Source: a virus | Taxonomy: Duplodnaviria > Caudoviricetes | DNA length: 64,000 nucleotides | IMG/VR virus record: IMGVR_UViG_3300028844_006787 | Reading direction: 5' to 3' (one strand) | Shown here: piece after piece, positions 3,097 through 63,894 of the stretch | Layout of the letters: each line of letters begins with the position of its first letter | How positions within the stretch are numbered: position 1 is the first letter of the stretch | Made by a program: the position numbers and the translations under genes | The notes under the pieces: generated by a model | Database searches by the model: none | Told to the model about the DNA's origin: nothing | The model's input: the letters and a program-made list of their open reading frames with translations, nothing else

Positions 3097-3125
3097 AGAT
3101 TACCAAAAATATTATAAAAAGTCAA
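3097..3125 (-). promoter_or_regulatory. Conserved-spacer promoter copy 2 (TTGACT-17-TAATCT)
   Basis: Member of 16-copy repeat. Confidence 0.85.
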
Positions 3126-7359: not shown

Positions 7360-7368
7360 ATTGATATT

Positions 7369-24802: not shown

Positions 24803-25104
24803 TATTTAATTCCATGTTTCACAAGAAACTTTTTTGCAAGAATCACACCACTATGAGGTGTTTCCATTTTGTATCTTTCGGTATTACTTAACTTTTGATA
24901 TGCTCTAAAAACATTTTTAAGTTTATCTACATCATATGAAGTTTCTTTTGATAAATGATCAACAAATTTTTTTTCATTACTATATCGTCTCATATCAAAT
25001 GAAATCTGATTGATAATGAATTGAAAGTCGGTCAATTGCTCATTTAGAACTGCAAATTCCTCTCGGACAATTTGCTTGATTCTGTTTTTGGAAATTTTCA
25101 TCAA
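24802..25104 (-). CDS. MKISK-leader protein
   Basis: MKISKNRIKQIVREEFAVLNE leader; payload homologous to C-terminus of 26880..27782. Confidence 0.8.
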   Translation of the reverse strand: MMKISKNRIKQIVREEFAVLNEQLTDFQFIINQISFDMRRYSNEKKFVDHLSKETSYDVDKLKNVFRAYQKLSNTERYKMETPHSGVILAKKFLVKHGIK

Positions 25105-25685
25105 TGATCTCTTGCTTTCTTACGAAGACGTTTAAGTGCATTAAATACTTCTCCAATTGCAAGACGATCTTGTTCTACAAAATACAATAAATCACAAACT
25201 GCGTGAGTAACTTCACCAGCATATCCTTTTAGTTTATTGTTTTTTGATACTTTGCGGATTGCAGTATGCATATCAAAATACAGTGATTGAAACTCTTTAA
25301 ATTCTGATTTACCGTTTGCTGAACTTTCATCAACGTCTGCTTCACTTATATTAAGTTTTGCTTTGATTGCTTTTTTAAGAATTGTATCACGTTGAGCATC
25401 GTTTTGTGACATCCATACACTATCGTATGTATTGCCATCTCCGTTGTCGTACAAATCTGTATTAAGTTTTTTTGGAAGAATTTTATGAAATAGACGATTG
25501 TTGTAACTATCTTTTCCACCTGCAATTTTAGCAAATACCATACGCAGAGTATTTTTAACAGTTTTGAAATCTGTATCTTTATCAACAAGATTTGCTTTTT
25601 TCATATTATCAAGAATCACAAGTGCGTCTTTTAAAAACTGCTTTTTGTGTTCAGGTGATACTTTTACTTCATTTACTTTTTTCAT
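25101..25685 (-). CDS. Modular protein of leader array (short MKKVNE leader)
   Basis: VNE at N-terminus, internal ISE junction. Confidence 0.75.
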   Translation of the reverse strand: MKKVNEVKVSPEHKKQFLKDALVILDNMKKANLVDKDTDFKTVKNTLRMVFAKIAGGKDSYNNRLFHKILPKKLNTDLYDNGDGNTYDSVWMSQNDAQRDTILKKAIKAKLNISEADVDESSANGKSEFKEFQSLYFDMHTAIRKVSKNNKLKGYAGEVTHAVCDLLYFVEQDRLAIGEVFNALKRLRKKARDH

Positions 25686-25978
25686 TTGTCATCGGGTCCT
25701 ATTGCTAAATGATTTTTGAATATTCCGAAGATTTCATTGCTAGGAATATATCCAGGAAGAAGTTTGCTTAAATCAGTTGCAGACATTCTTTTTTTCTTTT
25801 TTAAATCTTTTTCAAGTTGTTTCATTCCTTTTGAACCAAGATACTCATCTTCCCAATCAAGATTCTTTTTGATGGTGTCAAGAATAGTTTGTGTTGGTAA
25901 GTCCTTGGAAGTATGAGGACGCATTTCGTTGAGTTCCTCACGAACGATTTGTTTAAGTTGTTCTTTTGTAATTTTCAT
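25682..25978 (-). CDS. MKITK-leader protein
   Basis: MKITKEQLKQIVREELNE leader. Confidence 0.8.
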   Translation of the reverse strand: MKITKEQLKQIVREELNEMRPHTSKDLPTQTILDTIKKNLDWEDEYLGSKGMKQLEKDLKKKKRMSATDLSKLLPGYIPSNEIFGIFKNHLAIGPDDK

Positions 25979-25984
25979 TTTAAA

Positions 25985-26344
25985 TTATTTTTTTAAAATA
26001 CTTTCTATTTTGTTGATATAAGTTTTAAGTGTTTTTAAATAAATTTTTGAATCAGTAACTATATTACCTGTTGGTTTAAATTTAAAAGTTTTACTGAAAA
26101 CTACATTACCATCTTCATCGTTTACTTGAATTGGTATTACTTCTTGTCCGTCCCATCCTAGTGTGGCATAAATTGTACAATCAGGAAACTTTGGATTTTC
26201 CCATGCCCAACTTCCACTCATTCCTTCTACTTCGAGTTTCCAACCCATAAGATTTACTCGTTTTTGTAAAAGAAATTTTTTAAGATTTACATTATCTACT
26301 TCTTCACGAATAATTTCTTTTAATCTGTTTTTTGAAATTTTCAT
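25985..26344 (-). CDS. MKISK-leader protein
   Basis: MKISKNRLKEIIREE leader. Confidence 0.8.
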   Translation of the reverse strand: MKISKNRLKEIIREEVDNVNLKKFLLQKRVNLMGWKLEVEGMSGSWAWENPKFPDCTIYATLGWDGQEVIPIQVNDEDGNVVFSKTFKFKPTGNIVTDSKIYLKTLKTYINKIESILKK

Positions 26345-26883
26345 AACGAAGTTCTAAGACCTGTATGTTGTTCAAACGCATCACGAAGCATATCCGCATA
26401 AATTCCTTTTGCCTTGCTTTTTACTTTTTCTTTGTAGTTTCTTACCGAAAGAAATTCAACATCGTAAGTGTCCATGCTATTCAAATTAATACGAACATAA
26501 TTTACACCTTTTGAATTTCTTCCGATTTTAAATACAACTCCTTTTGGTCCCAAAAAGAAATCTTTTGCTCCAGTCATTGCAATGAAACGACCACCACCTA
26601 GTTGTTTAATAACTTCAGCACCTTGTCGTTTATCCATTCCTTCTGTTATGGATTTCAATTCTTCCTTAATAATTTCTTTGAGTTTTTCTTTGATGTCACT
26701 TATAGGAATAATATCTTCTTCACCCGAAGATGGTTTTACTTTTACAAAGTTGTGTGCGAAACCTTTTCCTTTTCCACCGAGTTTAAGCACTTTTGCTTTT
26801 TTATTATTTTTAAGAGTTACAGTATCTCCGACTTTTAATTCTTCACGAATTATTTCTTTTAGTTTTTGTTTTGTGATTTTCAT
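26341..26883 (-). CDS. MKITK-leader protein with SH3/KOW-like module, second leader copy and QLGGxRF module
   Basis: Leader at N-terminus and again as KEKLKEIIKEELKSITE. Confidence 0.8.
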   Translation of the reverse strand: MKITKQKLKEIIREELKVGDTVTLKNNKKAKVLKLGGKGKGFAHNFVKVKPSSGEEDIIPISDIKEKLKEIIKEELKSITEGMDKRQGAEVIKQLGGGRFIAMTGAKDFFLGPKGVVFKIGRNSKGVNYVRINLNSMDTYDVEFLSVRNYKEKVKSKAKGIYADMLRDAFEQHTGLRTSL

Positions 26884-27782
26884 TTTTTGATTCCTAACTT
26901 TGCAAGAAACTTTTTCATTTTACCTACATCAGTTTGCAGTTCAAATCTATCTTTAGCATTTACTTTCCAATATGCTTTAAACAACTTGATAAGTGTTTTT
27001 TCATCGTATTGAGTATCATCTGACATAAATTTAGCAAAATCACGTTCGGTGTAGTGATCCATTGCATTACTAAGTTGATCAATTAGAAAATCATAATCGG
27101 ACATTGCTTCCGTTACAAAATCTTCTTTAAGTGATGCTTGTAGTTTTTTTAAAATCTTAGCAATGTGTTTTTTAACATCACCTCTAAGTCTACTTTTGTT
27201 TTTTGCAACAATGTCGGCAAGATAATCTACTTTGAAATACTTTAATCCTTTTGTAGTTGCCATAGGATGTGATTCATATCCAAGTGCGTTGATTAAACCA
27301 ACTGCAAGTTGTTGCTCAAGTGAAGATAAAGCACTTGCGTCTATATTTGCTCCACCTTCTTCTGAAATGCCTTCACGTCTCATGCGTTTTCCACGTTTAT
27401 TGGTTTTTCCACCACGTTCATCCCAAACAGAACCCTTGCATTGTTTCATTGCCTCGGAATAAGAATAACCCATTCCCATGTAATCTTGAATGCAGTCGTG
27501 CATTTCTTCGTTGATTGCTTCTGCAAGACGAACTTCACGTTTGTCTCCACCATAAAGTGTTACAGTTGAAGTGCGACCTTTTTTTTGTACATCAACGTGA
27601 CCTTTTAGTTTTCCACTATCATGCACCTTAACAACAACTCCATCGTGGTTACCATTAAATTTTACTTCATCACCAACTTTAAACTTTTGGTTTTCATTAA
27701 CAAGTTCTAATAACACTTCACGAATAATATCTTTAATCTTGTGATGTGATTCTGTTTCATTTGTTTCCTGTGAATTTTCCAT
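26880..27782 (-). CDS. Multi-module protein heading the leader array (start corrected to MENSQ)
   Basis: KIKDIIREVLLELVNE leader variant; ATATTTAT 5 nt upstream of ATG. Confidence 0.8.
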   Translation of the reverse strand: MENSQETNETESHHKIKDIIREVLLELVNENQKFKVGDEVKFNGNHDGVVVKVHDSGKLKGHVDVQKKGRTSTVTLYGGDKREVRLAEAINEEMHDCIQDYMGMGYSYSEAMKQCKGSVWDERGGKTNKRGKRMRREGISEEGGANIDASALSSLEQQLAVGLINALGYESHPMATTKGLKYFKVDYLADIVAKNKSRLRGDVKKHIAKILKKLQASLKEDFVTEAMSDYDFLIDQLSNAMDHYTERDFAKFMSDDTQYDEKTLIKLFKAYWKVNAKDRFELQTDVGKMKKFLAKLGIKK

Positions 27783-42834: not shown

Positions 42835-42978
42835 TTAGAATCTACCAAACGCAAAACTCAACTTGGGCATCTTTGTAAAATAAAAAGCACCCCTCTTACT
42901 AGTAGACTTGGTTTGAGTGTAACGATTAACGATACGATATACTTTCTTGATTTGATTAATTTGATTTTGTTCTCTCAT
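42835..42978 (-). CDS. Small basic hypothetical protein (start MREQ)
   Basis: First ORF after promoter copy 15. Confidence 0.5.
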   Translation of the reverse strand: MREQNQINQIKKVYRIVNRYTQTKSTSKRGAFYFTKMPKLSFAFGRF

Positions 42979-43024
42979 TGTTTTTTTATTTTTAGTGTTT
43001 ATTCTCTCAATCATCAATACAAGT

Positions 43025-43053
43025 ATATTACCAAAATTATTATAAAAAGTCAA
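43025..43053 (-). promoter_or_regulatory. Conserved-spacer promoter copy 15 (TTGACT-17-TAATAT)
   Basis: Shares about 49 bp with copy 7. Confidence 0.85.
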
Positions 43054-43670: not shown

Positions 43671-44324
43671 CTACCCATTGTAACCCATGACCTCTATAAG
43701 TTCTTTATCAAGAAAACCGATATGATCAATTATATTTTGTGGAAATATATCACGATAAGTAAAATCGTAATTTTTACTTTTGTTTGAAACCGGAAGTTTT
43801 AAAGTTGGATAACCAATAAAATCAGCAACTTTTTGAAACTCAGTTTCTAAGTTTTCAAATTTTAAAAGATTATCTACGATAATATCACCATATTTATCTG
43901 CAACAAATTGAAATTGTGTTTTATTATTTTTCAAAATAGGCCACATTATTTTTTCAATATCATTTTTATCAAATAATACTTTCAGTGATTCTGCCTGCTG
44001 AATTGAATGCGTGTCCCAATATATTGAAGTATCTTTGTTTTTATATTTTTCTACATACTCTTTATAGTAAGTATAAAAACTAAAATATCTTTCCCACGGA
44101 TTTCTAATAACCGCAAAGTTACTAAAGTCAGAATAATCTACACCTTCATTTTCAAGATCCAAGGCAATTCGTTGAATAGTTGCGTGTTGATAAAACGCAA
44201 GACCTTCATTTGGTTGTCCAACATGACTTAAAATACCGGTAGGTTCTATACTCTTTCTGAATGCACTTGATGCAGTCTTAGGTATATCTACCATAATAAA
44301 TTTTTTGAATTTTGAAATTAACAT
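43671..44324 (-). CDS. Sulfotransferase family 2
   Basis: IPKTASS, IRNPWERYFSFY, KFENLETEF. Confidence 0.88.
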   Translation of the reverse strand: MLISKFKKFIMVDIPKTASSAFRKSIEPTGILSHVGQPNEGLAFYQHATIQRIALDLENEGVDYSDFSNFAVIRNPWERYFSFYTYYKEYVEKYKNKDTSIYWDTHSIQQAESLKVLFDKNDIEKIMWPILKNNKTQFQFVADKYGDIIVDNLLKFENLETEFQKVADFIGYPTLKLPVSNKSKNYDFTYRDIFPQNIIDHIGFLDKELIEVMGYNG

Positions 44325-44371
44325 CTTCTTTCTCTCCCTGTTTTATTATAAATATTAAATTAACTCAATTT

Positions 44372-45547
44372 TTAACTCGGTTTACCCCATATTTTATTCA
44401 AAGCATCATGCAGATCATCAATATCTATAAATGTCTTTTCACTTACAGAATCATCTGTATAAAGTAGTATGTTGTGGTTTATTCCAAGTCCTTGTATTGC
44501 CATGTGATAACCGTTAAATGGTTCTTGGACTTCAGCACATTCATAACTAGGTATAAATTCAACTAGGTTTACATTATCTAAATTTGAATACAATATATTT
44601 ATGAGTCCCGAACTATGTGGTCCAATTATAGTATGAGCATTTCTGAATATATTAATTTGTTCTTCAACGGAAAGTGTGTTTCCTTCAGAATCTTTTCCGG
44701 AAAATATCTTTAAATCTCCCTTTATTTTATTTTTTTCCATTAAAACTTTAATTGTCTCGATTATGTGCTTTTCATGTTCTTGATCTAGCAATCGTCTATT
44801 GGTAGTACCGTGCCTTGAATGATAAATTATATCACCACACTTTGTTTTACCTTCACCACATTTATTCAACCACTCTTTAAGATATTTTTGAAACTTTTTT
44901 CCCATTATACACGGATGCATATCAGGTGTAGAAACAATAAGTTCTCCGTCAATCTCAGCAGTTTCACCTAAATTTAACCAAACAATAGAATTATACAAAT
45001 CCAAATCAAGATTTTTAATTATATCTTTTTTGACAGGATCATTGAGCATTATATACTTACAATCACCACTAACTTGACTTTTCAACCACAAGAAGTATGG
45101 AAGTGCATCGTGTAATATATGCCCATAATTATGACTCCACCATGTATGAAATCCTACGTATTTACCAGACAATTTTATAATTTTTGAAGTTTCTTTGATT
45201 TTTGATTTGGTATACACAGGCCAATTTACAAATCCGGTGAATTCACCCCGTTCTTCATGCCATCCTGTAGATTTATAGTCTCTATCGTCTATAATTGAAG
45301 AACTTACCCATCCTGCTCCTTCTATTTCTATTGAGTTATTCCACGCACTCTGTGGCCAACTTATTCCTCCATTCCAAATTGCATATTTGCCATTTTTTAA
45401 TACATGAAGTGTTGGATATTCACGATCTTTACCGATGCTTGCTCCGATTAGCTTTTCATAGCAATAGTCTTTATATTCATTTAATATATTTTCTTTTTTA
45501 GAGAATATATTTGGCCAATTTATATCAAAATTATTATTATTTTCCAC
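44372..45547 (-). CDS. Glycosyltransferase family 61 (DUF563)
   Basis: NYGHILHDALP, SR....RRL, EQINIFRNAHTIIGPHSSGLIN. Confidence 0.85.
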   Translation of the reverse strand: MENNNNFDINWPNIFSKKENILNEYKDYCYEKLIGASIGKDREYPTLHVLKNGKYAIWNGGISWPQSAWNNSIEIEGAGWVSSSIIDDRDYKSTGWHEERGEFTGFVNWPVYTKSKIKETSKIIKLSGKYVGFHTWWSHNYGHILHDALPYFLWLKSQVSGDCKYIMLNDPVKKDIIKNLDLDLYNSIVWLNLGETAEIDGELIVSTPDMHPCIMGKKFQKYLKEWLNKCGEGKTKCGDIIYHSRHGTTNRRLLDQEHEKHIIETIKVLMEKNKIKGDLKIFSGKDSEGNTLSVEEQINIFRNAHTIIGPHSSGLINILYSNLDNVNLVEFIPSYECAEVQEPFNGYHMAIQGLGINHNILLYTDDSVSEKTFIDIDDLHDALNKIWGKPS

Positions 45548-53324: not shown

Positions 53325-54242
53325 ATGAATATACTTTGTGATAAAATACAAAATGGTCCTTTGATGATTATTCACGGAGGAGCAAGTCCGATTGATCCAA
53401 AAGGAGATGCTTTAATTGAAGCACTTGATGCTATCCAGAATATGGCAGATGTTTGTATGAAAGATTTAAGCAATGGAGCAACTGCTATTAAAACTGTTGT
53501 AAAATGTTTACAGATGCTTGAAAACGATGAACGTTTCAATGCAGGTATCGGAAGTGCTTTGCAAAGTGATGGTCTTCCTCGTTTAACTTCAAGTATTATG
53601 GATGGATACAAACAAAATATAAGTGGAGTAATATCAGTTCCGTATTTAAGCAATCCAAGTAAACTTGCTGAGAAACTTCAAAACCGCAGAGCAAAAATAT
53701 TAACATCTCCTGGTGCTGAACTTCTTGCACGTGAAATGAAACTTCCTATATCAAGCAATCTTACTGAAAAACGAAGTGAAAAATGGTTACATAAAATGAA
53801 GCAAAAAGATTTTCCTAGTTCTGTTGGATTTGAATGTGATACTGTTGGTTGTGTGATTATAGATGCAAAAGGAAAACTTGCAAGTGGTTCATCAACAGGT
53901 GGAGTTGGAAATGAATATCCTGGTAGAGTAAGTGATAGTGGAACTGTATCAGGAAATTTTGCAAGTCGTTATGCAGCCATTACAGTTACAGGAAAGGGTG
54001 AACAAATCAATAACGATGCAGTTGCTAGTAAAACTGAAACTCGTGTTCGTGATGGAATGAGTTTATCAGATGCTTTTGCTAAAACTTTCAAAGAAGCAAA
54101 ATCACGCAAACATTCGTATGGTTTTATCGGTGTAGATGCAAAGCATCACTATGGAATTGCTCATACAACAAATGCGATGCCGTATGTAATATACGGAGCA
54201 AACGGACTAATTGCTAAATTTGAAAATCAATCAATTGGATGA
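53325..54242 (+). CDS. Isoaspartyl peptidase / type-2 L-asparaginase (Ntn hydrolase)
   Basis: IHGGA, FNAGIGS, DTVG autocleavage Thr, STGG, GRVSDS, TGKGE; ATATTTAT upstream of ATG 53325. Confidence 0.92.
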   Translation: MNILCDKIQNGPLMIIHGGASPIDPKGDALIEALDAIQNMADVCMKDLSNGATAIKTVVKCLQMLENDERFNAGIGSALQSDGLPRLTSSIMDGYKQNISGVISVPYLSNPSKLAEKLQNRRAKILTSPGAELLAREMKLPISSNLTEKRSEKWLHKMKQKDFPSSVGFECDTVGCVIIDAKGKLASGSSTGGVGNEYPGRVSDSGTVSGNFASRYAAITVTGKGEQINNDAVASKTETRVRDGMSLSDAFAKTFKEAKSRKHSYGFIGVDAKHHYGIAHTTNAMPYVIYGANGLIAKFENQSIG

Positions 54243-54448
54243 TTCTTCAAAGTTTCAAGCAAAGATAAAGCATCATCTAATTTTTTGTATTCATCAAGAA
54301 TCGTTTCCGCAAGAATTTGGTGTTCTCCGATTCCAACCAGGTTGTCACCTGAATAAACCGCAAGGTTTGCTTTTGCCATATCAACTTCTGCTTCTGCTTT
54401 TTTGACCAACGCAGAATGAATATTTTTTGTTAGATTTTGTTTTGCCAT
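54227..54448 (-). CDS. Conserved small phage protein (VGIGEH)
   Basis: Motif typical of marine phage small ORFs. Confidence 0.7.
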   Translation of the reverse strand: MAKQNLTKNIHSALVKKAEAEVDMAKANLAVYSGDNLVGIGEHQILAETILDEYKKLDDALSLLETLKNHPID

Positions 54449-54487
54449 AATAATTTTATTTAATCAGATTATATAACGATTGTCAAC

Positions 54488-54796
54488 TCAATCGTGATTA
54501 TAATAATTTCCATTTTGAAATTCGTACATAATGCTTTCAAGATCATTTGCAGTTTTATTAGATAAATCTTCTGCAAGTTCTTGCATCAAACTATAAACTG
54601 ATAATCGTTGTCTTAAAGTTTCATTTAGTTCATCAAGTTTATCCGGATGCTTTTCGTAATATTCTGAATCATGTGATTCGTATTCTGAAACGATTTCGTT
54701 AAACTCTGTGTTCAATGACGCAACTTTTTTGGTAATTGCATTCAAAGTGTTTTCTGTTTGTTTTGCGTTGTTTTGTATTTTATTTATATCAAACAT
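54488..54796 (-). CDS. Coiled-coil hypothetical protein
   Basis: Overlaps upstream ORF. Confidence 0.65.
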   Translation of the reverse strand: MFDINKIQNNAKQTENTLNAITKKVASLNTEFNEIVSEYESHDSEYYEKHPDKLDELNETLRQRLSVYSLMQELAEDLSNKTANDLESIMYEFQNGNYYNHD

Positions 54797-55160
54797 ATAA
54801 TATCATCCATTTATTGTTAATACTTGTGTAAGCATAATGACTTGCTTTTTTGGGTGCATGGGGATGAAACATTGCATTCCGACTTGGATGCTCTGTTTTA
54901 CGATTTTGCCAAATCATAGGATTATCATCATTGTAATACAACCACGGACGAATACTACGATTCCACGGACCACGCAAAGTCAACAATGGATCATTCAATC
55001 CAAATGCAGGTTCATAATACAAATAACAATGATTCTTATTTTGTTGAACAACCCATCCAAAAACTTTCACAGGATAATCCACTACGAGTTGCTTCAACTC
55101 TGTTAAAGAATAAAAATTGTTTGCAACCATTATTGATGAACTCATGGTTTTTTTCTCCAT
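54789..55160 (-). CDS. DPWxR-family paralog 12
   Basis: YPV..W, GPWNRSIRPW, YTSINNK...LY. Confidence 0.75.
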   Translation of the reverse strand: MEKKTMSSSIMVANNFYSLTELKQLVVDYPVKVFGWVVQQNKNHCYLYYEPAFGLNDPLLTLRGPWNRSIRPWLYYNDDNPMIWQNRKTEHPSRNAMFHPHAPKKASHYAYTSINNKWMILYV

Positions 55161-55486
55161 AATTTAATTCTTTTACCAGCAACTGTTGTCCAACGAAATT
55201 GATATTCAAGATTCTCTGCTAAATCATAAACAGGTTCTGTATCAGACCACGCAAATGTAGTAGTATCTGTATCATTTTTTCTCCAAGGACGCATAACACG
55301 ATCCCAGGGATCTTTTGCTTCATGCAAATTATTTTCATCTAGAACAATATATCGTTCGTATGCAATATCTTCGTGTCTGCCGATATGCCAAGCATCGTTG
55401 GTTGTAGGATATTGTTTTATCAAACGAGGTTCTGCCCATTGCTTACCCGAATAAAAGTTTATGTTTATGCTATTATTCGGTTTCAT
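55142..55486 (-). CDS. DPWxR-family paralog 11
   Basis: YPTTNDAW, DPWDRVMRPW, RWTTVAGKRIKLW. Confidence 0.8.
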   Translation of the reverse strand: MKPNNSININFYSGKQWAEPRLIKQYPTTNDAWHIGRHEDIAYERYIVLDENNLHEAKDPWDRVMRPWRKNDTDTTTFAWSDTEPVYDLAENLEYQFRWTTVAGKRIKLWRKKP

Positions 55487-55793
55487 GTTTTCTGTATAAT
55501 CTAATTAGTTTGCCATGAACAGATGTAATTCGTTTATCATAATCTTCATAGAAATCATCTTGTACCCATTCAAAAAACATATCTTCAAATTTCCACGGAA
55601 CGAGTGGTCGTTTCCAAGGATCTAATAATGGTTGTGAAGTAGTTGCAATTATATAACGACCCTCTGCAAGATCCAACTCAGTTCTTCCGTGTACACCCCA
55701 TATCCAAGCATAATGATTTAAAGGAGGATATTTGCTTAATAGTTCTATTTCACTCCAAAAACTTGGAGTGCTTGATAGTGTAACATAATCCAT
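55473..55793 (-). CDS. DPWxR-family paralog 10
   Basis: YPPLN..W, DPWKRPLVPW, RITSVHGKLIRLY. Confidence 0.8.
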   Translation of the reverse strand: MDYVTLSSTPSFWSEIELLSKYPPLNHYAWIWGVHGRTELDLAEGRYIIATTSQPLLDPWKRPLVPWKFEDMFFEWVQDDFYEDYDKRITSVHGKLIRLYRKHETE

Positions 55794-55801
55794 TGTTCTA
55801 T

Positions 55802-55830
55802 ATAGTAGAATCAGTGGGTATTTATGTCAA
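55802..55830 (-). promoter_or_regulatory. sigma70-type promoter TTGACA-17-TACTAT driving the three-gene DPWxR array
   Basis: Near-consensus, immediately upstream of ATG 55793. Confidence 0.75.
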
Positions 55831-55844
55831 CGAAAATATTCAAA

Positions 55845-56657
55845 TTAAAACTTATTGGTTTTCCAATATTCATATTGTTCGGATGATATAAATTCTTCAA
55901 GTTCTTTTTCTGTACAAAAATTCCAATCTTTCATTCCGTCTTTTAATATATCTGACTTCTGTTGCTGAGAAAACAATCCGATTTTTCTCATGAACTTTAT
56001 ACGCAGTTTTTTATCTTCATGTAAATTTGGATGAGCACAAAATCCTGCTAATTTATCAACTGGACACGATATGGAATTTGGAGAACTCCAATATTGCATA
56101 GGTTCGTTTTTAAATATTTTTGCACCTCTAAGGTGTGGTGAAATGTTTATTGTATTTGGACTAAATGATATAATTCCGTTAAAATGCTCACGATTATGAG
56201 TAGCATCTACCATTATTTTTGCACCACGTTGCGTCACAACATAACTTTCAAATCCATCAAAGTTATTCCAATAATCGTTTGCATGATATCTTTTATTTAA
56301 TTGATAAAAGTCTGAGGAATCATTGAATGTAGGTTCATTTTCTAAAAAATATTTTACATCGTTAAATTTTGCATCGTCTTCTAAAATCATTGCACAATTT
56401 ATATTATTTAATAGAATATCTTGCCATATTGAAAAATGACTTAGATATGCTCCAATTGCACCAGGACACTGTGAAAAATATAATTTAAACGCAAGACCTA
56501 CAGGATCAAACGATAAATTTTTATCTTTATATACAAACGGATTTGTTCTTGAATCTATTGCCGAGAATCTATTAAATCTTTTATCTAAAAATTTAAATTT
56601 TCTCCAACGATGATACTTGTCAGAAAGATTTATTACATATATTTTTTCAATTCTCAC
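55845..56657 (-). CDS. Glycosyltransferase family 25
   Basis: IYVINL, RFSAID, GAIGAYLSH, ILEDDA, PVD. Confidence 0.9.
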   Translation of the reverse strand: MRIEKIYVINLSDKYHRWRKFKFLDKRFNRFSAIDSRTNPFVYKDKNLSFDPVGLAFKLYFSQCPGAIGAYLSHFSIWQDILLNNINCAMILEDDAKFNDVKYFLENEPTFNDSSDFYQLNKRYHANDYWNNFDGFESYVVTQRGAKIMVDATHNREHFNGIISFSPNTINISPHLRGAKIFKNEPMQYWSSPNSISCPVDKLAGFCAHPNLHEDKKLRIKFMRKIGLFSQQQKSDILKDGMKDWNFCTEKELEEFISSEQYEYWKTNKF

Positions 56658-56709
56658 TTGTAATAAATATTAAACGTATTATATATTTCACTCGGACAAT
56701 GTTAAAGTC

Positions 56710-57468
56710 TTATTTAAGTTTAACTTCAGAGAATAAACTTTTGAATGTTTCCAAGTGAGTCCAAAATTTATGAGGCACTTCTTGCTTATAGTTGGTTTCG
56801 TTTACATAATCGTATACTATATTTGCCATTAGATCACGATGCTCTTTTACGTCTTCAGTCCAGTTGCTTGGTGTGTTAGGTATAAATTTCGGTTGTAATA
56901 AAGTTATTGAACACGGATGAACTAAATGTAAACTTGTTTCAATATGTTTCATTTCTTTAAATTTTATGTAAGGAAATGTGTGTACCCTAGCATGATCTCT
57001 GACCCATCCATCACATGGCATATTAGATTTTTCATATTTACATAAGAAGTTGTTTGTCATCATCGGAAATGTTTTAACTGGATTTTTTTCATAATGATAT
57101 TCATTTGAATCAGTAATACTAAAGTGATAATAACCGAGAACTATTAAATTACAATTTTCATTAAAATTAGATACACACTCTTCATATTCTTTTTCTGTAA
57201 TCATAAAAATATCATCATCATCCATCGGAGCATAAATGTTGTTTTTATATTTAGTCGGTTGGGGAGAGTGTACTTTTTTAATACAAGTTTGAGACTCCAA
57301 TATGTCACTTGATATTCTTCTTAATTTTTTTCGTAAAGTGAAAAAATCAATATTAAAAGTTTTATTCCAAAAATCTACCGCAGTTTTGAATACAGTGACA
57401 TCTCCACCTCCACAATGAGTTAGTTTTCCGTTCAAATAGTTTTGATTGATTCTAAATACGACTTCCAT
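56710..57468 (-). CDS. Putative GT-A glycosyltransferase-like protein
   Basis: PMDDDD motif, glycan cluster context. Confidence 0.5.
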   Translation of the reverse strand: MEVVFRINQNYLNGKLTHCGGGDVTVFKTAVDFWNKTFNIDFFTLRKKLRRISSDILESQTCIKKVHSPQPTKYKNNIYAPMDDDDIFMITEKEYEECVSNFNENCNLIVLGYYHFSITDSNEYHYEKNPVKTFPMMTNNFLCKYEKSNMPCDGWVRDHARVHTFPYIKFKEMKHIETSLHLVHPCSITLLQPKFIPNTPSNWTEDVKEHRDLMANIVYDYVNETNYKQEVPHKFWTHLETFKSLFSEVKLK

Positions 57469-57519
57469 TATTTAATAAATATAAATGAACATAGTTTTAC
57501 TATCCGTACTCATATGTTT

Positions 57520-59019
57520 TTAGTTTTCATTTAGTATCCAATTTATTGATTTTTTTAGTGAATATTCATCATTAAAGTTGTGAACTTTATATCGAAATAT
57601 GCTACCGATTTCTTTTGGCCAATTTGTTGAAATAGGTTTGCCAATTTCTGTTGACCAAGCAAAATCAATAATTTTTATTTTTCCATCAAGTATCAACAAC
57701 TCAGATGGTTTTATATCGTTGTGACTACAATTATATTGTTTTAAAACATCAATTATGTTTTTAATTTGTTCTTCGTAGTCTTTTGGCATATTTTGCTTTG
57801 TAAGATATTCTCCAGCATAACTCATTGTAACTGATTTCAACCGCTTATCACTTGAAATATATCCCGGAGTAATTCCAGAATCACTTAATTTTTTTAACCA
57901 ATGTTCTTCTCGGTCATACATATCTGGAAACACTTTGGCAAAGCAATATGTATTCGGTTTACAAGTAAATTTTTTGATAACCACATCGTTTTCTATGTCT
58001 ATCTTTACATCAGAAGTTGCATTTATTGATCGTGAGTATTTCATTGTAGCAACCCAATCAATATGAAAACCGACTGAGTCATCGTTTGGTTTAACATAGT
58101 TAAATTTTTTCGAACTCATGTAATCATCCAGTAATTTTCTTAGTTCTTTTTTTCGTGTTGGTAAACCTAACTTTTTAAAAATATTCTTGTATGTTTCAGA
58201 AATTTTAGGTTTATGAATCAAGGCATGATAAATTAAAGTGTATTTGTGTGTATTTGCTCCTGGTATATAAAAATTTTTGCAAGGCACCCGTTTGTTTAAT
58301 AATTCGTTTTCCAAGTTTATTTCATAGTAATCATCTCCAATATGTCTCAAATCAAACCAAACTGCCTTTCCATCTATCAACACACTGTTCAAAATTCTCC
58401 AACCTCCGTCTTCAAGTGATTGTTTTCCCGTAAAAACTGATGTGGCATCTAACGCACACTTTGCCTTATAATAATCCGAAACCATCAAATCTACATCAAG
58501 ATGTTCGTCTATCGTTATATCATCAGGAATACCTTCAAAGTTTCTCATAATAACATACTTGAAATCTTCTAATTTATTCAAGACATCAAAAACTTCTGAT
58601 ATATCTTTGAACTCTCTGCGAATGTAATGTTTTTCATACAAACCAAGCACTTTTAGATTATCTTTCGTTTCTTGTATATTATCCGTTGCGTGAATTTGTG
58701 AGCTCACTTTTTTTCTAAGAAATTTTTTCAAATCAAATAGTTTTGTGTTTACTAACCGGTCTCCCTTTGTAGTTTTTCTATAACCGTAACAACACGGACT
58801 ATTTACAAGGTACAACGTAAAATCAGTTGCACCTCTTTCATCATTAACTTTAAAACCAACATTATAAAATTCAGTTATAGTTTTACACTTATTTTCTAAC
58901 TTTGGTATCTTGATAATATCAGTTAAATTTAATCCGTGTTCATTAATATGAGTTTTCATATTATCCTCGGAAATTGCGTTAGACCAGTCTATTATTAAAT
59001 GTTGCTCTACTAATTCCAT
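57520..59019 (-). CDS. Three-domain fusion: NDK-like, nucleotidyltransferase-like, protein-kinase-like
   Basis: IHATDN..ET; YVIMRNFE..HLDVDLMV; HNDIKPSELL..IKIIDFAW. Confidence 0.7.
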   Translation of the reverse strand: MELVEQHLIIDWSNAISEDNMKTHINEHGLNLTDIIKIPKLENKCKTITEFYNVGFKVNDERGATDFTLYLVNSPCCYGYRKTTKGDRLVNTKLFDLKKFLRKKVSSQIHATDNIQETKDNLKVLGLYEKHYIRREFKDISEVFDVLNKLEDFKYVIMRNFEGIPDDITIDEHLDVDLMVSDYYKAKCALDATSVFTGKQSLEDGGWRILNSVLIDGKAVWFDLRHIGDDYYEINLENELLNKRVPCKNFYIPGANTHKYTLIYHALIHKPKISETYKNIFKKLGLPTRKKELRKLLDDYMSSKKFNYVKPNDDSVGFHIDWVATMKYSRSINATSDVKIDIENDVVIKKFTCKPNTYCFAKVFPDMYDREEHWLKKLSDSGITPGYISSDKRLKSVTMSYAGEYLTKQNMPKDYEEQIKNIIDVLKQYNCSHNDIKPSELLILDGKIKIIDFAWSTEIGKPISTNWPKEIGSIFRYKVHNFNDEYSLKKSINWILNEN

Positions 59020-59050
59020 TACTTTTTATCCCATTTATTGTTTTTAGTTT

Positions 59051-59722
59051 TCATTCTCCAAATTCATAACCGAAATACTCAATGTCTTTTGCATACTTTT
59101 CCGCAACGATTTGTCTTGTTTCATCATCGTAATATTCGGTATAGTGTTTGTGTTTTGTTTTATTTTTATGCGGAAGTTTTTGTTTTGGAATTCCGATTTT
59201 GTCACAGACGATGTCGAAGTCTGCTTGAAGGGTTTCAAATCTTCCGATGAAATCAACTTCTCTGGCCCAATGGAATTGTTCGGTGTCCCAGTGATAATCG
59301 TTCAACCAACCACATTTTTTTTTGTTTATTATCCACTCTTTAAATGTAGAACATCCAGTCAACTCCTTAGTATATGCATTGTATACATCTATAAATAGTT
59401 CCTTTTCCCCCGGGTCCGTGTCCCAAAACTCAATAGATTTTTGGAAAAATAAATAATTACTCAACGAAAGTTCAAATGGATTCCTTGCAAAACAAAAACT
59501 GAAATGGTTATTAACCTTTAAAACTTCTTCAACATCCGAAAGTCGTGCGTGTTCAAAAACTTTAGTTCTAAATTTAGCCGTAGGTTTTTGGTGAATTATC
59601 AAGTTTTCCTTGTCTCCGTGATACCAAGTATCGGCATAATTTTTCAAGCAGTATCGTATGGATGTACTTGCGGTTTTTGGTACAGAAACGAACACAAACT
59701 TATGCTTATGTGAAATAATCAT
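59051..59722 (-). CDS. Sulfotransferase family 2
   Basis: VPKTASTSI, ARNPF..LSNY, GRFETLQADF. Confidence 0.9.
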   Translation of the reverse strand: MIISHKHKFVFVSVPKTASTSIRYCLKNYADTWYHGDKENLIIHQKPTAKFRTKVFEHARLSDVEEVLKVNNHFSFCFARNPFELSLSNYLFFQKSIEFWDTDPGEKELFIDVYNAYTKELTGCSTFKEWIINKKKCGWLNDYHWDTEQFHWAREVDFIGRFETLQADFDIVCDKIGIPKQKLPHKNKTKHKHYTEYYDDETRQIVAEKYAKDIEYFGYEFGE

Positions 59723-59723
59723 T

Positions 59724-60662
59724 TTAATATGTTTTTAATCCAAATGACGTTAAAAAAGATAAAAGTTTAACCACCTTCAATTTAATTGAAAATTCTTCTT
59801 TGGTTACTGACTCTGAAAAAATAAATTTAATGTTTTCTTTTACATAATCACAACATTTTTTGTGGTCTGACCAAGGTCCTGGATTTCGCAAATAATCTAA
59901 ATTTAACATTACATCTGAAATCGATTGCCATGCAACTCTTTTTACAAACCATTCTTGATTTAATCTGTCTGGTTGAATTATGTGTTCTACAACAGAAGCA
60001 GGTGAATATACAATTTTATGGTCAGATTGCATTGCATACACAAGTTCCATTTCTTCTGATCCAAGAAGACCTCCATCTGAACCCTTTCTTCCAAGTTTGA
60101 CAGAAAATCCATTAAACTTTCTAAGTGTTTCTGCATCAAATGCTATATTTGCTCCTGCAAACCACATTCCTTGTCTTTGTTTGTATACAAGTTCCGAATC
60201 ACCAAAGTCTAATACAGACAAATAACCAAGAGCATCTTCGGATAACCATTCAGGACGAGGCGACTCACTCCAGTTTGCAGTTACTTTACCTCCCATGATT
60301 GAAAGATTTTCATGCTTGTCAAAGCATTTAATTGTTTCTTCAACAAACTTTTTACAAACCAAAGCATCATCATCAATGTAATGAATTATTTTCGTGGTAC
60401 ATATGCCCAAGCATTCATTTCTTGCTCCAGATAAACCATCGGTCAATTTATTCATATACTTGAAATTAGGTAATGTTTTTGAGAATGACTTGCATTTCTC
60501 ATATAAATCACCACACGGAGATGGTGTATTATCTAAAATTATTACATTATATAAATCACAAGATACTTCCTGCTCTGCAATTGATTTTAAACATCGCAAC
60601 AAATATTTATAATTATTGTATGTACACACACATAATGTTATTTTTTTCTCACCAACCATCAA
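59724..60662 (-). CDS. Glycosyltransferase family 2
   Basis: VCTYN, GLSGARN, YIDDDA, GANIAF, GF...LGR, EE. Confidence 0.92.
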   Translation of the reverse strand: MMVGEKKITLCVCTYNNYKYLLRCLKSIAEQEVSCDLYNVIILDNTPSPCGDLYEKCKSFSKTLPNFKYMNKLTDGLSGARNECLGICTTKIIHYIDDDALVCKKFVEETIKCFDKHENLSIMGGKVTANWSESPRPEWLSEDALGYLSVLDFGDSELVYKQRQGMWFAGANIAFDAETLRKFNGFSVKLGRKGSDGGLLGSEEMELVYAMQSDHKIVYSPASVVEHIIQPDRLNQEWFVKRVAWQSISDVMLNLDYLRNPGPWSDHKKCCDYVKENIKFIFSESVTKEEFSIKLKVVKLLSFLTSFGLKTY

Positions 60663-60706
60663 AAAACCTCTTTTTATAATAAATATGAGGTTTTGGATTT
60701 ATTTTT

Positions 60707-61105
60707 TCATTTAGTCAATGACTTTTGTGACAAAAAATTATACTCTCGTTTATATAATCGTATGTGCTTTCCATTAACTGAGGTGTATCTTTCTGAAAGT
60801 GCGTAAGTCTTTTTTCCGTTTAAAAACGAATGAGGTGTTGGTAAATCCCATTCACGTCCTTTTTCATAATCTCTCCATTTCCACGGAATCATTTTACGAA
60901 ACCACGGATCATATTCCGTTTCTGATATACAAGTTATTTTTCTAACAACATCTTGATCAAGTTTTACATCCATTGGATCACATACATATGCCCAATGTTC
61001 GTGATTTATAATTGGATGCGTTTGCATCAACTCAACTGTTCCCCAGTGATCCCCCATAGAAAAATTTTCTAATAAAATTTCTGTTGGTGATGTTTGGGTT
61101 ATCAT
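60707..61105 (-). CDS. DPWxR-family paralog 9
   Basis: HPIIN..W, DPWFRKMIPW, RYTSVNGKHIRLY. Confidence 0.8.
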   Translation of the reverse strand: MITQTSPTEILLENFSMGDHWGTVELMQTHPIINHEHWAYVCDPMDVKLDQDVVRKITCISETEYDPWFRKMIPWKWRDYEKGREWDLPTPHSFLNGKKTYALSERYTSVNGKHIRLYKREYNFLSQKSLTK

Positions 61106-61437
61106 TCTAATCTAAATAAACGAACCGATTTTCCTGCTACGGTTGTAAAACGAACCTCAAATGTAATTTCAAGTTTGTCTTCGTATAACCAACTCCAACC
61201 ACCTGTTAATATTTCACCATCTTTATCTTTATATTCCCATGCACGAATTAATCTTGACCACGGATCAATATCATAGTTTTTTGACGCAAATGGTTTTAAC
61301 ATAATTTTATTGTATTTGGATGAATATTCCCAACCTCTATCTGATATAGGATATATTTCAATCAACTTACCCGAATCCCAAAATTCATCGTTATATGATA
61401 TACACAATGGCATACTTTGCAAATAACCGATGGTCAT
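61102..61437 (-). CDS. DPWxR-family paralog 8
   Basis: YPIS..W, DPWSRLIRAW, RFTTVAGKSVRLF. Confidence 0.8.
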   Translation of the reverse strand: MTIGYLQSMPLCISYNDEFWDSGKLIEIYPISDRGWEYSSKYNKIMLKPFASKNYDIDPWSRLIRAWEYKDKDGEILTGGWSWLYEDKLEITFEVRFTTVAGKSVRLFRLE

Positions 61438-61440
61438 CGT

Positions 61441-61728
61441 TTAACTACACAAAAAAATTGGTACTTTTTTACCCTCAACCTTCACCCAACGAAACAGAAC
61501 ATCTTTATACGCATCGTAAGTTAACCAGGATGTTCCAGTTTCCCAACCACGATTCCAAGGATCTGCAATTACATCTTTATTGAATGTAACAATCTGCGAT
61601 TTCATACCAGGATAATAATATTCATCTCCGTAACCAATTACATAATTCGGAGAATATTCCGAATTTTTTATAGGATATTTATTTAACAATTTATTTTTAT
61701 TCCATTCTTCCATTTTTAGCAACTCCAT
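61441..61728 (-). CDS. DPWxR-family paralog 7
   Basis: YPIKN, DPWNR, RWVKVEGKKVPIF. Confidence 0.8.
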   Translation of the reverse strand: MELLKMEEWNKNKLLNKYPIKNSEYSPNYVIGYGDEYYYPGMKSQIVTFNKDVIADPWNRGWETGTSWLTYDAYKDVLFRWVKVEGKKVPIFLCS

Positions 61729-61958
61729 AATCTTACTCGTTTATTGTTTATTGTTGTGTATCCATAAATTAAAATACCTGCTTCGTCTGATATAAATGTT
61801 TTTCTACTTTCTGTAAAATCACGAAACCAAGGATCTAGTGTTATTTCATTTAACTTTACATATGAATTGATAAGTGTACCTGTGAATTTCCATTCCGCAT
61901 TATTGCGAATTGGATATAAGTTCATTAACTCAGATATATCCCAATAATCAACTGTCAT
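61716..61958 (-). CDS. DPWxR-family paralog 6 (minimal, 80 aa)
   Basis: YPIRN..W, DPWFR, YTTINNKRVRLW. Confidence 0.8.
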   Translation of the reverse strand: MTVDYWDISELMNLYPIRNNAEWKFTGTLINSYVKLNEITLDPWFRDFTESRKTFISDEAGILIYGYTTINNKRVRLWSC

Positions 61959-62397
61959 TTTTTTGCTCCTTTGTTTTCATCATGTCGTAATATTCAGTTA
62001 AAGTCAATCCAAAGATTTGGCGTTCAGCACGATGCCAAGGATCTTTCCAATCTGCTTTTCTACGATATAATTTAACCGCAAATCCATTTACCGAGGTTAT
62101 AGTCATGCAATTATCAGAATCCATATCTTTAAGTGGTGGATGTGGCCATCCTGCTTTTCCCCAAAATCTTGGAGTTTCATTGAATTCACTTACATAAGGT
62201 AGCATCGGACGTTTCCAAGGATCCAGTTTCGGTTCGTGTACAAGTGCAATTAAATGACTACGATAGATTACAGGTTCAACCCATCGTTCCCATTCTTCTG
62301 TATTGGTAATTGGAAACGCATCATCACCTACAATCTTAGGATAAATGTCCCAAAATTGCCATTTCTTAATTTCAATAAAATCGTTGTTTGTTACCAT
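61948..62397 (-). CDS. DPWxR-family paralog 5
   Basis: FPITN..W, DPWKRP, ITSVNGFAVKLY, second DPWHR. Confidence 0.8.
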   Translation of the reverse strand: MVTNNDFIEIKKWQFWDIYPKIVGDDAFPITNTEEWERWVEPVIYRSHLIALVHEPKLDPWKRPMLPYVSEFNETPRFWGKAGWPHPPLKDMDSDNCMTITSVNGFAVKLYRRKADWKDPWHRAERQIFGLTLTEYYDMMKTKEQKNDS

Positions 62398-62804
62398 GTT
62401 AATTTAGCAAATATTATACCTTTGTTTTCAATGGTAGTCCAACGAAAATCTATTCCATCGTGTGTATCCAACCATTTGTATGGTCCACATCCGTATTTTC
62501 TTGCAAATGAGGAATCTGCATCAACCGTTACCGCAGGTTTCCATTGTCTTACGGGACGCATCCACGGATCATACTTTAATCCGATTTTTTGCCGTTTTGT
62601 TAATTTACTCTCAGGAGCAAGTGTTCTTATTCTATAAAACGGATTATCAGTATATTCATATAAAGGATTTCGTATCGGATATTCAGTGATAATATAATCC
62701 ATTTCTTCGTTCCATGTATGAAAATGCTCTTGGTTTGTATCGTATATCAACTGACCATAGTTGTTCATACGAAGATTTCCGTTTATTGTAATCGCATTGC
62801 TCAT
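62391..62804 (-). CDS. DPWxR-family paralog 4
   Basis: YPIRN, DPWMRPVRQW, RWTTIENK. Confidence 0.8.
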   Translation of the reverse strand: MSNAITINGNLRMNNYGQLIYDTNQEHFHTWNEEMDYIITEYPIRNPLYEYTDNPFYRIRTLAPESKLTKRQKIGLKYDPWMRPVRQWKPAVTVDADSSFARKYGCGPYKWLDTHDGIDFRWTTIENKGIIFAKLTW

Positions 62805-63184
62805 CTCTCAATAATCATATGCAATTTCACAAATTTTCCTTCTACGGTTACATACCGATAAAAATGTTTTCCTTCGTATGGACTTGAAGCAATTCCCCCG
62901 TGTGTATCGTAAGTAATGCAAGTCCATTCGTGTGGTTCATTAAATTCTTCACCGGGTTGTGCGTATGCGTATCTCCATTCTTTGAAACTACGATTCCAAG
63001 GATCACCAATAACATCATCAAATTTAGGAATATCAGTTCGGTTTGAATAGTTTGTTCGCACATACACATAATAATCATTACCATGTGCAATCCATTGTTT
63101 ATTGATTATTGGATATTTAATTGATATTTCATCTGCATTGCCAGGAACCAGCAAATCTATTTGTAATATTTTTTCAATACTCAT
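62801..63184 (-). CDS. DPWxR-family paralog 3
   Basis: YPIINKQW, DPWNRSFKEW, RYVTVEGKFVKL. Confidence 0.8.
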   Translation of the reverse strand: MSIEKILQIDLLVPGNADEISIKYPIINKQWIAHGNDYYVYVRTNYSNRTDIPKFDDVIGDPWNRSFKEWRYAYAQPGEEFNEPHEWTCITYDTHGGIASSPYEGKHFYRYVTVEGKFVKLHMIIER

Positions 63185-63498
63185 TTAAACAAAGGATGAT
63201 TAGATGATGGATGCATCCACAAAGCAACCGTTTTTCGCATAACCGATGTTAACCGATAATATGATCCTTTGGTTTCGGTATACACCCAATCATTAATTTC
63301 AGTTTGTCCGATGCGATTCCACGAAGTTAGTTTTCGTCCCCACGGATCAGTTTCAATGTGTTCATCCAACTCATAAAAATATTCAAATAAATCTCCATTG
63401 CGTTGCCACCGTTTATTAACAATCGGAAATCTAAATGTCAACTCTTGAAGTGAATACCAATGAACATTAGGATTAATTTCTATTACTTCTTCTGCCAT
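63181..63498 (-). CDS. DPWxR-family paralog 2
   Basis: FPIVNKRW, DPWGRKLTSW, RLTSVMRKTVALW. Confidence 0.8.
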   Translation of the reverse strand: MAEEVIEINPNVHWYSLQELTFRFPIVNKRWQRNGDLFEYFYELDEHIETDPWGRKLTSWNRIGQTEINDWVYTETKGSYYRLTSVMRKTVALWMHPSSNHPLFK

Positions 63499-63800
63499 AA
63501 CTTAATTGCCGTTTGATTAATTGTTGTATAACGAAAATGTGTGTATTTTTTAATAGGAACTGCACCACGAATCCATCCATAATTATTACCATCACCTTGA
63601 TTAAAATTCCAAGGAATAGTATCACGATTCCAGGGATCGCATATTGGTTCTGCAATCTTGGAAACAATCATCGGATAACGATTGCTTGTATTGTCAACTT
63701 CCCACTCAGTATCATTTTTAATAGGAAACTTTTCAAGCAATTTATCGGTTTGCCAAGAGATTCCACCATCAATTAAAACTTTATCTCTTTTATCTCTCAT
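63483..63800 (-). CDS. DPWxR-family paralog 1
   Basis: FPIKN..W, DPWNRDTIPW, RYTTINQTAIKLW. Confidence 0.8.
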   Translation of the reverse strand: MRDKRDKVLIDGGISWQTDKLLEKFPIKNDTEWEVDNTSNRYPMIVSKIAEPICDPWNRDTIPWNFNQGDGNNYGWIRGAVPIKKYTHFRYTTINQTAIKLWQKK

Positions 63801-63809
63801 TCTTTAGTA

Positions 63810-63838
63810 ACATTACCAAAAAAATTATAAAAAGTCAA
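63810..63838 (-). promoter_or_regulatory. Conserved-spacer promoter copy 16 (TTGACT-17-TAATGT), heads nine-gene DPWxR array
   Basis: Member of 16-copy repeat. Confidence 0.85.
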
Positions 63839-63858: not shown

Positions 63859-63894
63859 AAAAAAAGTTGTTGATGAAATCAACAAGTTTTTTTT
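63859..63894. terminator. Bidirectional intrinsic terminator
   Basis: TTGTTGAT/ATCAACAA stem flanked by A-run and T-run. Confidence 0.65.

Follow-up and report, generated by a model that had tools for sequence, protein, structure and literature searches.

Why would a phage keep a dozen diverged copies of one small protein side by side? The question is raised by a 64,000-nucleotide (nt) stretch of DNA, here called the window, that comes from a virus of the Caudoviricetes (Duplodnaviria; IMG/VR record IMGVR_UViG_3300028844_006787) and carries on its minus strand a tandem array of small proteins sharing the motif DPWxR. An initial annotation, made from the sequence alone, had described nine such genes behind one early-type promoter and had read them as a diversified set of binders in which a constant fold displays hypervariable loops. 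We found that the array holds 12 genes of a family absent from the libraries that we searched, that the copies stand in the same order in related phages, and that scaffold and variable segments alike are under purifying selection.

An array of 12 paralogous genes

All nine of the minus-strand open reading frames (ORFs) of 80 to 149 amino acids (aa) previously placed between positions 63800 and 60707 were found. Named by copy number and by the slot that they occupy in the array, they are copy 1 (slot A; 63483..63800; 105 aa), copy 2 (slot B; 63181..63498; 105 aa), copy 3 (slot C; 62801..63184; 127 aa), copy 4 (slot E; 62391..62804; 137 aa), copy 5 (slot F; 61948..62397; 149 aa), copy 6 (slot G; 61716..61958; 80 aa, the shortest member in the window), copy 7 (slot H; 61441..61728; 95 aa), copy 8 (slot j; 61102..61437; 111 aa), and copy 9 (slot K; 60707..61105; 132 aa). 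Copies 2, 3, 4, 6, 7, and 9 were each supported by the ORF, the alignment, a hidden Markov model (HMM), and the table of orthologs. The abutting or overlapping layout was also as described, with neighbors overlapping by 4 to 16 nt or standing 3 nt apart, and the overlapping reading frames suggest translational coupling. The shared, ordered scaffold was borne out by an alignment of the nine members, in which P-I and D-P-W-x-R are invariant. When the suggested HMM was built from these nine members, it retrieved three genes that it had not been trained on, with E values of 2e-13, 2e-18, and 2e-10, and nothing else in the window, the next best ORF reaching only 0.14; the family pattern is therefore not a product of chance. 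The three are copy 10 (slot L; 55473..55793; 106 aa), copy 11 (slot M; 55142..55486; 114 aa), and copy 12 (slot N; 54789..55160; 123 aa), in the order of the E values given, all on the minus strand, and in copy 12 GPWNR replaces DPWNR. The nine genes are thus real, but the full array has 12 and is broken by the insertion of a cassette of nonfamily genes. In six relatives (L011, L012, L009, L003, L014, and L016; L numbers denote contigs of related phages), the orthologs of copies 9 and 10 adjoin at a distance of about 38 nt, which shows the nine and the three to be one ancestral array.

The proteins are rich in tryptophan, as had been noted, with a content of 3.1 to 6.1%. In an alignment of 76 family sequences, P, W, and R of DPWxR are the only invariant residues, while the D of this motif, the proline of YPI, and two further tryptophans are conserved in at least 90% of the sequences. 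Overall identity in the family is only about 25%, yet the N of YPIxN, the D and R of DPWxR, R-x-T-T, and G-K persist. The N-terminal regions cannot be aligned, with 1 to 50 aa preceding the first conserved tryptophan. Isoelectric points (pI) range from 5.2 to 9.5 for the window copies and from 4.5 to 9.6 for those of L011, so the strong acidity expected of a DNA-mimic antirestriction protein of the Ocr/ArdA type is not seen. None of the members has a hydrophobic segment or a signal-like N terminus, in agreement with the earlier failure to see a signal peptide, and the members are soluble, stand-alone proteins. The similarity between copies at the DNA level is as slight as it had appeared by eye, consisting only of matches of 24 to 31 nt over the DPW codons (families D8 and D15).

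Copy 5, in the best-conserved slot, has W.DPW.R twice, the second time in the C-terminal tail at a distance of exactly 60 residues from the first. This second motif was kept in 55 of the 55 slot-F proteins found, whether the tail was long or short, and it is invariant in an alignment of 17 slot-F sequences, where the mean column identity is 74%. Since the motif is retained in the tail, DPWxR is preserved as a unit outside the domain, which keeps alive the idea that it is a docking element and not merely a turn.

Conserved slots and old duplications

Family copies were counted in the related contigs with the family HMM in six reading frames. Copy number varies, in keeping with the initial annotation, which had named an invariant number as an argument against its proposal: complete arrays range from 12 to 19 copies, with 12 in the window and in L016, 13 each in L015, L022, and L023, 14 each in L011 and L025, 15 in L003, 17 in L028, and 19 each in L005 and L030. 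All of the arrays lie on a single strand and are contiguous apart from insertions. The slots can be written as A B C (D) E F G H (I) (J or j) K (L) M (n) N plus lineage-specific extras, and their order was collinear in 21 of the 21 related loci mapped; in the window, the succession of slots is A B C E F G H j K, insert, L M N. About ten slots form a core that is present in every phage, and close relatives differ in whether they have slots D, I, J, L, and n. Slot j of the window is a divergent alternative: at the position of copy 8, two genes (I and J) are found in L003, L011, and L009, and copy 8 shares 35% identity with the slot-J gene of relatives.

In a maximum-likelihood tree and in tables of best hits, the copies cluster by position (Shimodaira-Hasegawa-like approximate likelihood ratio test values of 94 to 100) and never by genome. 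Sequence identity is 25 to 36% between paralogs and 43 to 93% between orthologs; for copy 1, the orthologs in L003, L005, and L009 show 64 to 74% identity. No recent tandem duplication was visible in the arrays compared. Because the copies group by position and not by genome, the duplications are old, and all of those that are shared predate the split of the compared phages. Several family copies are broken into short frames at positions 10250-12300 of L009, a 224.5-kb relative with a pilon-polished assembly; these most likely reflect uncorrected indel errors rather than pseudogenes.

Purifying selection across the scaffold and variable segments

The two segments that had been called hypervariable loops differ widely in length, at 11 to 27 aa for the first and 12 to 59 aa for the second. 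Between paralogs of the window, identity was 32% in the scaffold and 10% in the variable segments. Between orthologs, the corresponding values were 77% and 64% for the window versus L011 and 63% and 51% for the window versus L003. The ratios of nonsynonymous to synonymous substitution rates (dN/dS), calculated by the Nei-Gojobori method (NG86), were 0.18 in the scaffold and 0.29 in the variable segments for the window versus L011 and 0.14 and 0.15, respectively, for L003 versus L005. The segments cannot be aligned between paralogs but are conserved between orthologs, and they are therefore not hypervariable in the evolutionary sense. The comparison of loop and scaffold dN/dS suggested with the initial annotation showed purifying selection in both parts, at values near those of neighboring enzymes: five neighboring genes (asparaginase, UvdE, and three others) had dN/dS values of 0.06 to 0.19. 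Across 11 ortholog pairs, dN/dS was 0.08 to 0.33, from which it follows that the array genes are coding. Per-site entropy was determined in five ortholog groups of 7 to 58 sequences (groups A, B, F, and N had 16 to 58 protein variants); the variable segments exceeded the scaffold in two groups, matched it in two, and fell below it in one. Positive selection in the variable segments was not seen with pairwise NG86, a blunt test at the dS values of 0.8 to 1.6 found here. A repertoire that is still diversifying does not agree with these results, as the shared duplications are old, the gene order is fixed, and selection is purifying. Rather, the sequence comparisons indicate that each paralog keeps surfaces of its own, forming a long-fixed repertoire with nothing that points to ongoing diversification.

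Absence from reference libraries and predicted fold

The initial annotation recognized no family, and we obtained no significant match in Pfam, PHROGs, NCBIfam, PADLOC, or PDB sequences. In Pfam-A, a single member had a row at an E value of ≤1 (0.062, a chance row), and NCBIfam 20 gave no match for any member. PHROGs v4 returned three unnamed families, each for one member and with a best E value of 0.002, and PADLOC 2.0 returned two families, each for one member, at E values of 0.007 and 0.012; none of these was a usable match. The profile of 76 sequences reached a best E value of 0.27 against PDB sequences. A confident match to a characterized enzyme or structural family, the result earlier named as fatal to the binder idea, was absent from all of the libraries searched, and no defense family matched either.

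Structures were predicted with AlphaFold2 for copy 1 from a 12-row alignment (predicted local distance difference test [pLDDT] score, 77; predicted template modeling [pTM] score, 0.70) and for copy 8 from a 76-row alignment (pLDDT, 85; pTM, 0.75). Both models have the same α/β order of elements, namely, one short strand, one helix, and then six to seven strands. The notion of a constant fold is supported to the extent that two independently predicted members share this order. The description of the two variable segments as loops has to be amended, as they contain predicted β-strands in both cases. The DPWxR stretch was assigned mostly to coil by DSSP in both models. With these models, Foldseek found nothing in the PDB at an E value of ≤0.001, and VIA-align against 48,161 chains gave best Z scores of 2.7 and 2.8, far under the background level quoted by the tool. 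The BFVD structure search gave no significant match; its top E value was 2.5e-3, and the three best rows were uncharacterized proteins of "uncultured Caudovirales phage" with template modeling (TM) scores of 0.28 to 0.30. The ESM Atlas gave no significant match when searched by shape and no usable match when searched by features with two members. Rows of the VOC/glyoxalase-bleomycin-resistance type appeared with VIA-align at Z scores of 2.0 to 2.5 over 49 to 63 residues, below the background of the tool, and in the Atlas shape search at TM scores of 0.36 to 0.39. Cofolding of copy 8 as a homodimer scored 0.08, which counts neither way. On the strength of two predicted models, for which a missing match does not by itself establish a new fold, the family is a candidate new fold.

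Occurrence in marine T4-like phages

When 1.84 billion representative proteins were searched exhaustively with a family profile, 64 hits were obtained; 63 of these were true members, all unnamed and 64 to 181 aa long, and one was an ankyrin-repeat false positive. In 5.8 billion clusters, word-indexed searching returned 63 and 82 hits, and no functional annotation was attached to any of them. The hits came from ENA, JGI, Tara, Logan, and NCBI metagenome records, and every source of the family that could be traced was a marine metagenome. Among the INPHARED phages, blastn and tblastn gave no family match, so no cultured phage with the family was found; scans of IMG/VR with two members returned nothing, and there was no family match in LR756508, the 484-kb uncultured phage that is the nearest DnaE relative (43% identity). 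To date, uncultured marine T4-like phages of one clade are the only known carriers of the family.

No fused forms were found among longer proteins, which is weak evidence. Three individual records were considered separately. P0040, a protein of 1340 aa with ankyrin repeats, was rejected as a false positive of the profile. P0197, which joins the N-terminal part of FtsZ to the C-terminal half of a slot-C member on a 1.7-kb metagenome contig, is probably a chimeric assembly. P0065, on a 5.5-kb metagenome contig, is a fusion of slots A and B that fits a frameshift in the 16-nt overlap.

Promoters and transcription units

The array lies behind a promoter with sigma-70 geometry (63810..63838, minus strand), consisting of TTGACT, a 17-nt spacer ending in TGG, and TAATGT, and the ATG of copy 1 is located 9 nt past the -10 hexamer. 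The promoter holds an exact copy, at 63814 to 63838, of a 25-mer, TTGACTTTTTATAATWWTTTTGGTA, that occurs 14 times in the window at ≤3 mismatches, always on the minus strand and with 0 copies expected by chance. The conserved promoter element reported before the array is thus present, but in 14 rather than 16 copies. The 25-mer motif is also found upstream of the array in L003, L005, and L009. A single promoter for the array, as originally described, holds for copy 1 and the genes behind it but not for copies 10 to 12, which have their own promoter (TTGACA, 17 nt, TACTAT; 55802..55830, minus strand) with the ATG of copy 10 placed 8 nt past the -10 hexamer. TTGACA-N17/18 is found at the matching place in L011, L003, and L009. 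Judged from these elements, the array would be transcribed as two polycistronic units from sigma-70-consensus promoters. The early promoters of T4-like phages are near the sigma-70 consensus with a 17-nt spacing (PMC4122927), and the array promoter agrees with them; the early type named in the initial annotation is thereby supported, and early timing is what we infer from that type.

A terminator-like hairpin (63859..63894, minus strand) separates an upstream phosphoribosyltransferase-type gene from the array promoter. By RNAfold, it comprises an A-run, a stem of 8 predicted pairs, a 3-nt loop, and a T-run, and the 60 nt upstream of the promoter have a folding energy of -12.4 kcal/mol (z = -3.3 versus shuffles). 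The promoter early stem-loop (PeSL) elements of T4-like phages have this layout, with an early promoter after a hairpin (PMC4122927); the window differs in that a hairpin stands upstream of no more than 2 or 3 of the 14 25-mer copies. The clearest terminator-plus-promoter, PeSL-like element in the window is at 42970-43053, where a G+C-rich hairpin with a T-run precedes a promoter copy (-18.1 kcal/mol; z = -3.7). Behind another six 25-mer copies (ending at 3125, 12711, 16903, 23940, 31504, and 36939), the first ATG is 9 or 13 nt past the -10 hexamer, so that an ATG follows this closely at 7 of the 14 copies, the array copy included. Spacings of 8 to 9 nt would give leaderless or nearly leaderless mRNAs. 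Many of the 25-mer copies carry a conserved (A)TGAGAGA, which either contains the start codon or resembles a Shine-Dalgarno sequence 7 to 20 nt before a later ATG.

Inserted cassette and neighboring genes

The cassette that splits the array (55810..60745, minus strand; 4.9 kb) was identified from Pfam hits and from comparison with relatives. Its five minus-strand genes encode a glycosyltransferase of type GT2 (59724-60662), a sulfotransferase (59051-59722), a protein of 499 aa whose kinase-like match is weak (57520-59019), the product of an ORF of 252 aa (56710-57468), and a second glycosyltransferase, of type GT25 (55845-56657); the two glycosyltransferases, the sulfotransferase, and the kinase-like match were assigned by Pfam. 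No insert is present in L014 (junction at L014 1915-1953), whose DNA identity to the window is about 90%. L015, at about 88% identity, has at the same junction a 2.5-kb insert (L015 6238-8696) with a GT2 gene, a gene for a 198-aa protein, and a GT25 gene. This comparison shows the cassette to be a recent, nested insertion just before the internal promoter.

A hairpin with an 8-bp stem lies at the edge of the insert, between the stop codon of copy 9 and the start of the GT2 gene. A direct repeat of 213 nt with 84% identity (window 7367-7579 and 59049-59261) forms the 3' part of both the cassette sulfotransferase and a second gene at 7369-7962, and the gene for the 198-aa protein of L015 shows an 81% match to both repeat-bearing genes. 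Additionally, a 38-nt upstream motif with 74% identity (44343-44380 and 56658-56695) precedes the gene at 43671-44324 and the cassette GT25 gene; being distinct from the 25-mer, it may be another class of promoter for glycan genes.

Behind the array follow two small, co-oriented genes of 102 and 73 aa (54227..54796, minus strand) that are not family members; they stand behind the array in all of the relatives, with amino acid identities of 80% and 96%, respectively, in L011. The 102-aa gene after copy 12 was considered a possible degenerate member and ruled out by an hhalign probability of 0.2% against the family, as was a 101-aa gene inside the array of L005 (probability, ≤0.2%). The array neighbors with a Pfam match are the phosphoribosyltransferase-type gene, a ResIII helicase, an asparaginase, and DUF1501, and small genes lacking a Pfam match are also nearby. 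The window as a whole has a G+C content of 32% and consists almost entirely of minus-strand genes, among them a piece of a DnaE-type polymerase, a DNA ligase, a UvdE endonuclease, several glycosyl- and sulfotransferases, and a PSCyt2/PSD1 and DUF1501 pair. For a conserved 459-aa protein of the window, T4-like cyanomyoviruses are the only phages with deposited sequences that encode relatives. A second set of paralogs, five consecutive minus-strand genes with a common 5' end of about 48 nt (families D4 and D5), is located at 24755-26915.

Discussion

The explanation that we tentatively favor, at somewhat less than even confidence, is that the array is a fixed repertoire of nonenzymatic early binders, every paralog being directed at a host-cell target of its own that was fixed long ago. 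The sigma-70 promoters would drive the two polycistronic units early in infection, each paralog would bind a different host target in the service of host takeover or counterdefense in the broad sense, and the ten or so core slots would be retained in every phage while accessory slots are gained and lost between lineages. The variable segments, which are specific to each paralog (10% identity) yet conserved between orthologs (64% or 51%), argue for this explanation, as does the broad span of pI values (4.5 to 9.6). The absence of an enzyme or structural-protein match, the shortness of the 80-aa member, the solubility of the proteins, and the lack of fused forms among those found are also consistent with small binders. 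Three observations weigh against it. Most known anti-defense loci turn over fast, unlike the strictly collinear array with its strong purifying selection. The same 25-mer also precedes large genes (of 1024 aa and 766 aa and an AAA ATPase gene), and it therefore does not mark small takeover genes specifically. Finally, the most conserved stretch is polar and aromatic (D, W, and R) and coil in the predicted models, and it could be a shared active or docking site.

If DPWxR is a docking site, the paralogs may be a family of adaptors, all of which dock through the motif on one phage or host protein while their variable segments bring different clients, much as in the substrate-receptor families of ubiquitin ligases and the adaptors of proteases or modifying enzymes. 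We consider this possible but unlikely. The only residues that are invariant in 76 sequences, P, W, and R, belong to the motif (as does a D conserved in at least 90%), which is mostly coil in the models, and the slot-F tail keeps a second W.DPW.R as a unit outside the domain in all 55 proteins. However, a D-P turn with a buried tryptophan and a salt bridge to the arginine would be an equally possible and purely structural reason for this conservation, and no candidate partner is conserved beside the array except the phosphoribosyltransferase-type gene, which lies upstream behind the terminator-like hairpin. A more specific proposal, to which we assign a rather low probability, is that the DPWxR proteins are a new fold for modular targeting, with the motif, repeated as a free tail element in slot F, plugging the paralogs into one shared phage or host machine and the 12 to 19 surfaces delivering different host proteins to it; if true, phages would have in this targeting system an equivalent of the substrate-receptor families found in eukaryotes and giant viruses. 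The paralogs might instead be subunits of one hetero-oligomeric assembly, cotranslated in a fixed order, as the strict gene order in the 21 related loci, the start and stop codons overlapping in a manner suggestive of coupled translation, and the constant presence of about ten core slots would allow. A copy number of 12 to 19 and the gain and loss of slots D, I, J, L, and n between close relatives are hard to fit to a fixed stoichiometry, and a conserved order is to be expected by default of any tandem array passed on by descent, so we regard such an assembly as improbable.

It is quite improbable that the proteins are small enzymes or act on nucleic acids, for example, as nucleases or RNA-binding regulators, with a site made up of DPWxR and the conserved N, T-T, and K. 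The persistence of polar residues (the N of YPIxN, the D and R of DPWxR, R-x-T-T, and G-K) at 25% overall identity is what such a site would lead one to expect, but no enzyme family or fold matched in the libraries searched, one member has only 80 aa, the pI range of 4.5 to 9.6 speaks against a uniform basic surface, and there is no obvious rationale for a 12- to 19-fold array of a single activity. Tandem arrays of small, diverged, tryptophan-containing paralogs are typical of immunity clusters, and each paralog could neutralize one variant of a toxin, such as an abortive-infection effector or a polymorphic toxin. We give this little credence, as no toxin gene was found beside the array in any locus examined, no SUKH or Imm family of Pfam matched at an E value of ≤1, and the orthologs are under purifying and not diversifying selection. 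Very improbable, in our judgment, is that the products are packaged in the virion and injected with the DNA like the internal proteins (IP) of T4, although T4-like phages do keep clusters of small, variable internal-protein genes (PMC4122927): the N termini are not conserved, with no shared capsid-targeting leader or cleavage site, and the promoters are of the early and not the late type.

As a cluster of small genes of early type within a hyperplastic region of a T4-like genome, the array is of a familiar kind. What is unusual is its form, with 12 to 19 ancient, collinear paralogs of a family that is absent from the libraries and has a predicted fold unmatched in those searched. The host-takeover module of the Bacillus phage SPO1 has about 24 small early genes that are transcribed from strong early promoters by the host RNA polymerase, and its products are thought to be stoichiometric inhibitors. 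The array resembles it in the close packing of small genes of early type with overlapping frames, and it too would be transcribed by the host enzyme; however, the genes of SPO1 are not known to be paralogs of one another or to have a sequence or fold relation to the present family, and they serve in a different type of host. Giant viruses have expanded families of binders and adaptors (ankyrin, BTB, F-box, and MORN) and likewise carry many paralogs of one small scaffold per genome with presumably different host targets, but those are known, host-derived repeat folds scattered over the genome, whereas the present scaffold is a single domain without a known relative and is confined to one collinear operon. 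Orphan immunity arrays of polymorphic toxin systems (SUKH/Imm), reportedly described by Zhang, Iyer and Aravind in 2011, share with the array the tandem, diverged small paralogs, the constant fold with variable surfaces, and the varying copy number. The array differs from them in having no toxin nearby and no profile match, in belonging to a phage of lytic type, and in the conservation of its orthologs. Comparable, too, are the PeSL-bounded hyperplastic early modules of T4-like phages (Comeau, Arbiol and Krisch 2014; PMC4122927), with which the array has in common a T4-like genome, small ORFans, a near-sigma-70 promoter with 17-nt spacing, a terminator-like hairpin upstream of the array promoter, and indels, seen here as a cassette and as slot gains and losses that fall at gene junctions. 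The ORFans of those modules are usually unrelated to one another and shuffled from phage to phage, in contrast to the 12 to 19 paralogs of one family found here in a fixed order and with a conserved core.

The family is missing from every curated library that we searched, and an alignment of about 200 natural sequences is now at hand. Accessory genes of phages are usually seen as fast-turnover ORFans, and the array shows the opposite: it is old, collinear, and under purifying selection, with some of its slots exchanged. It is thus a natural experiment on the need of a phage for many fixed variants of one small protein.

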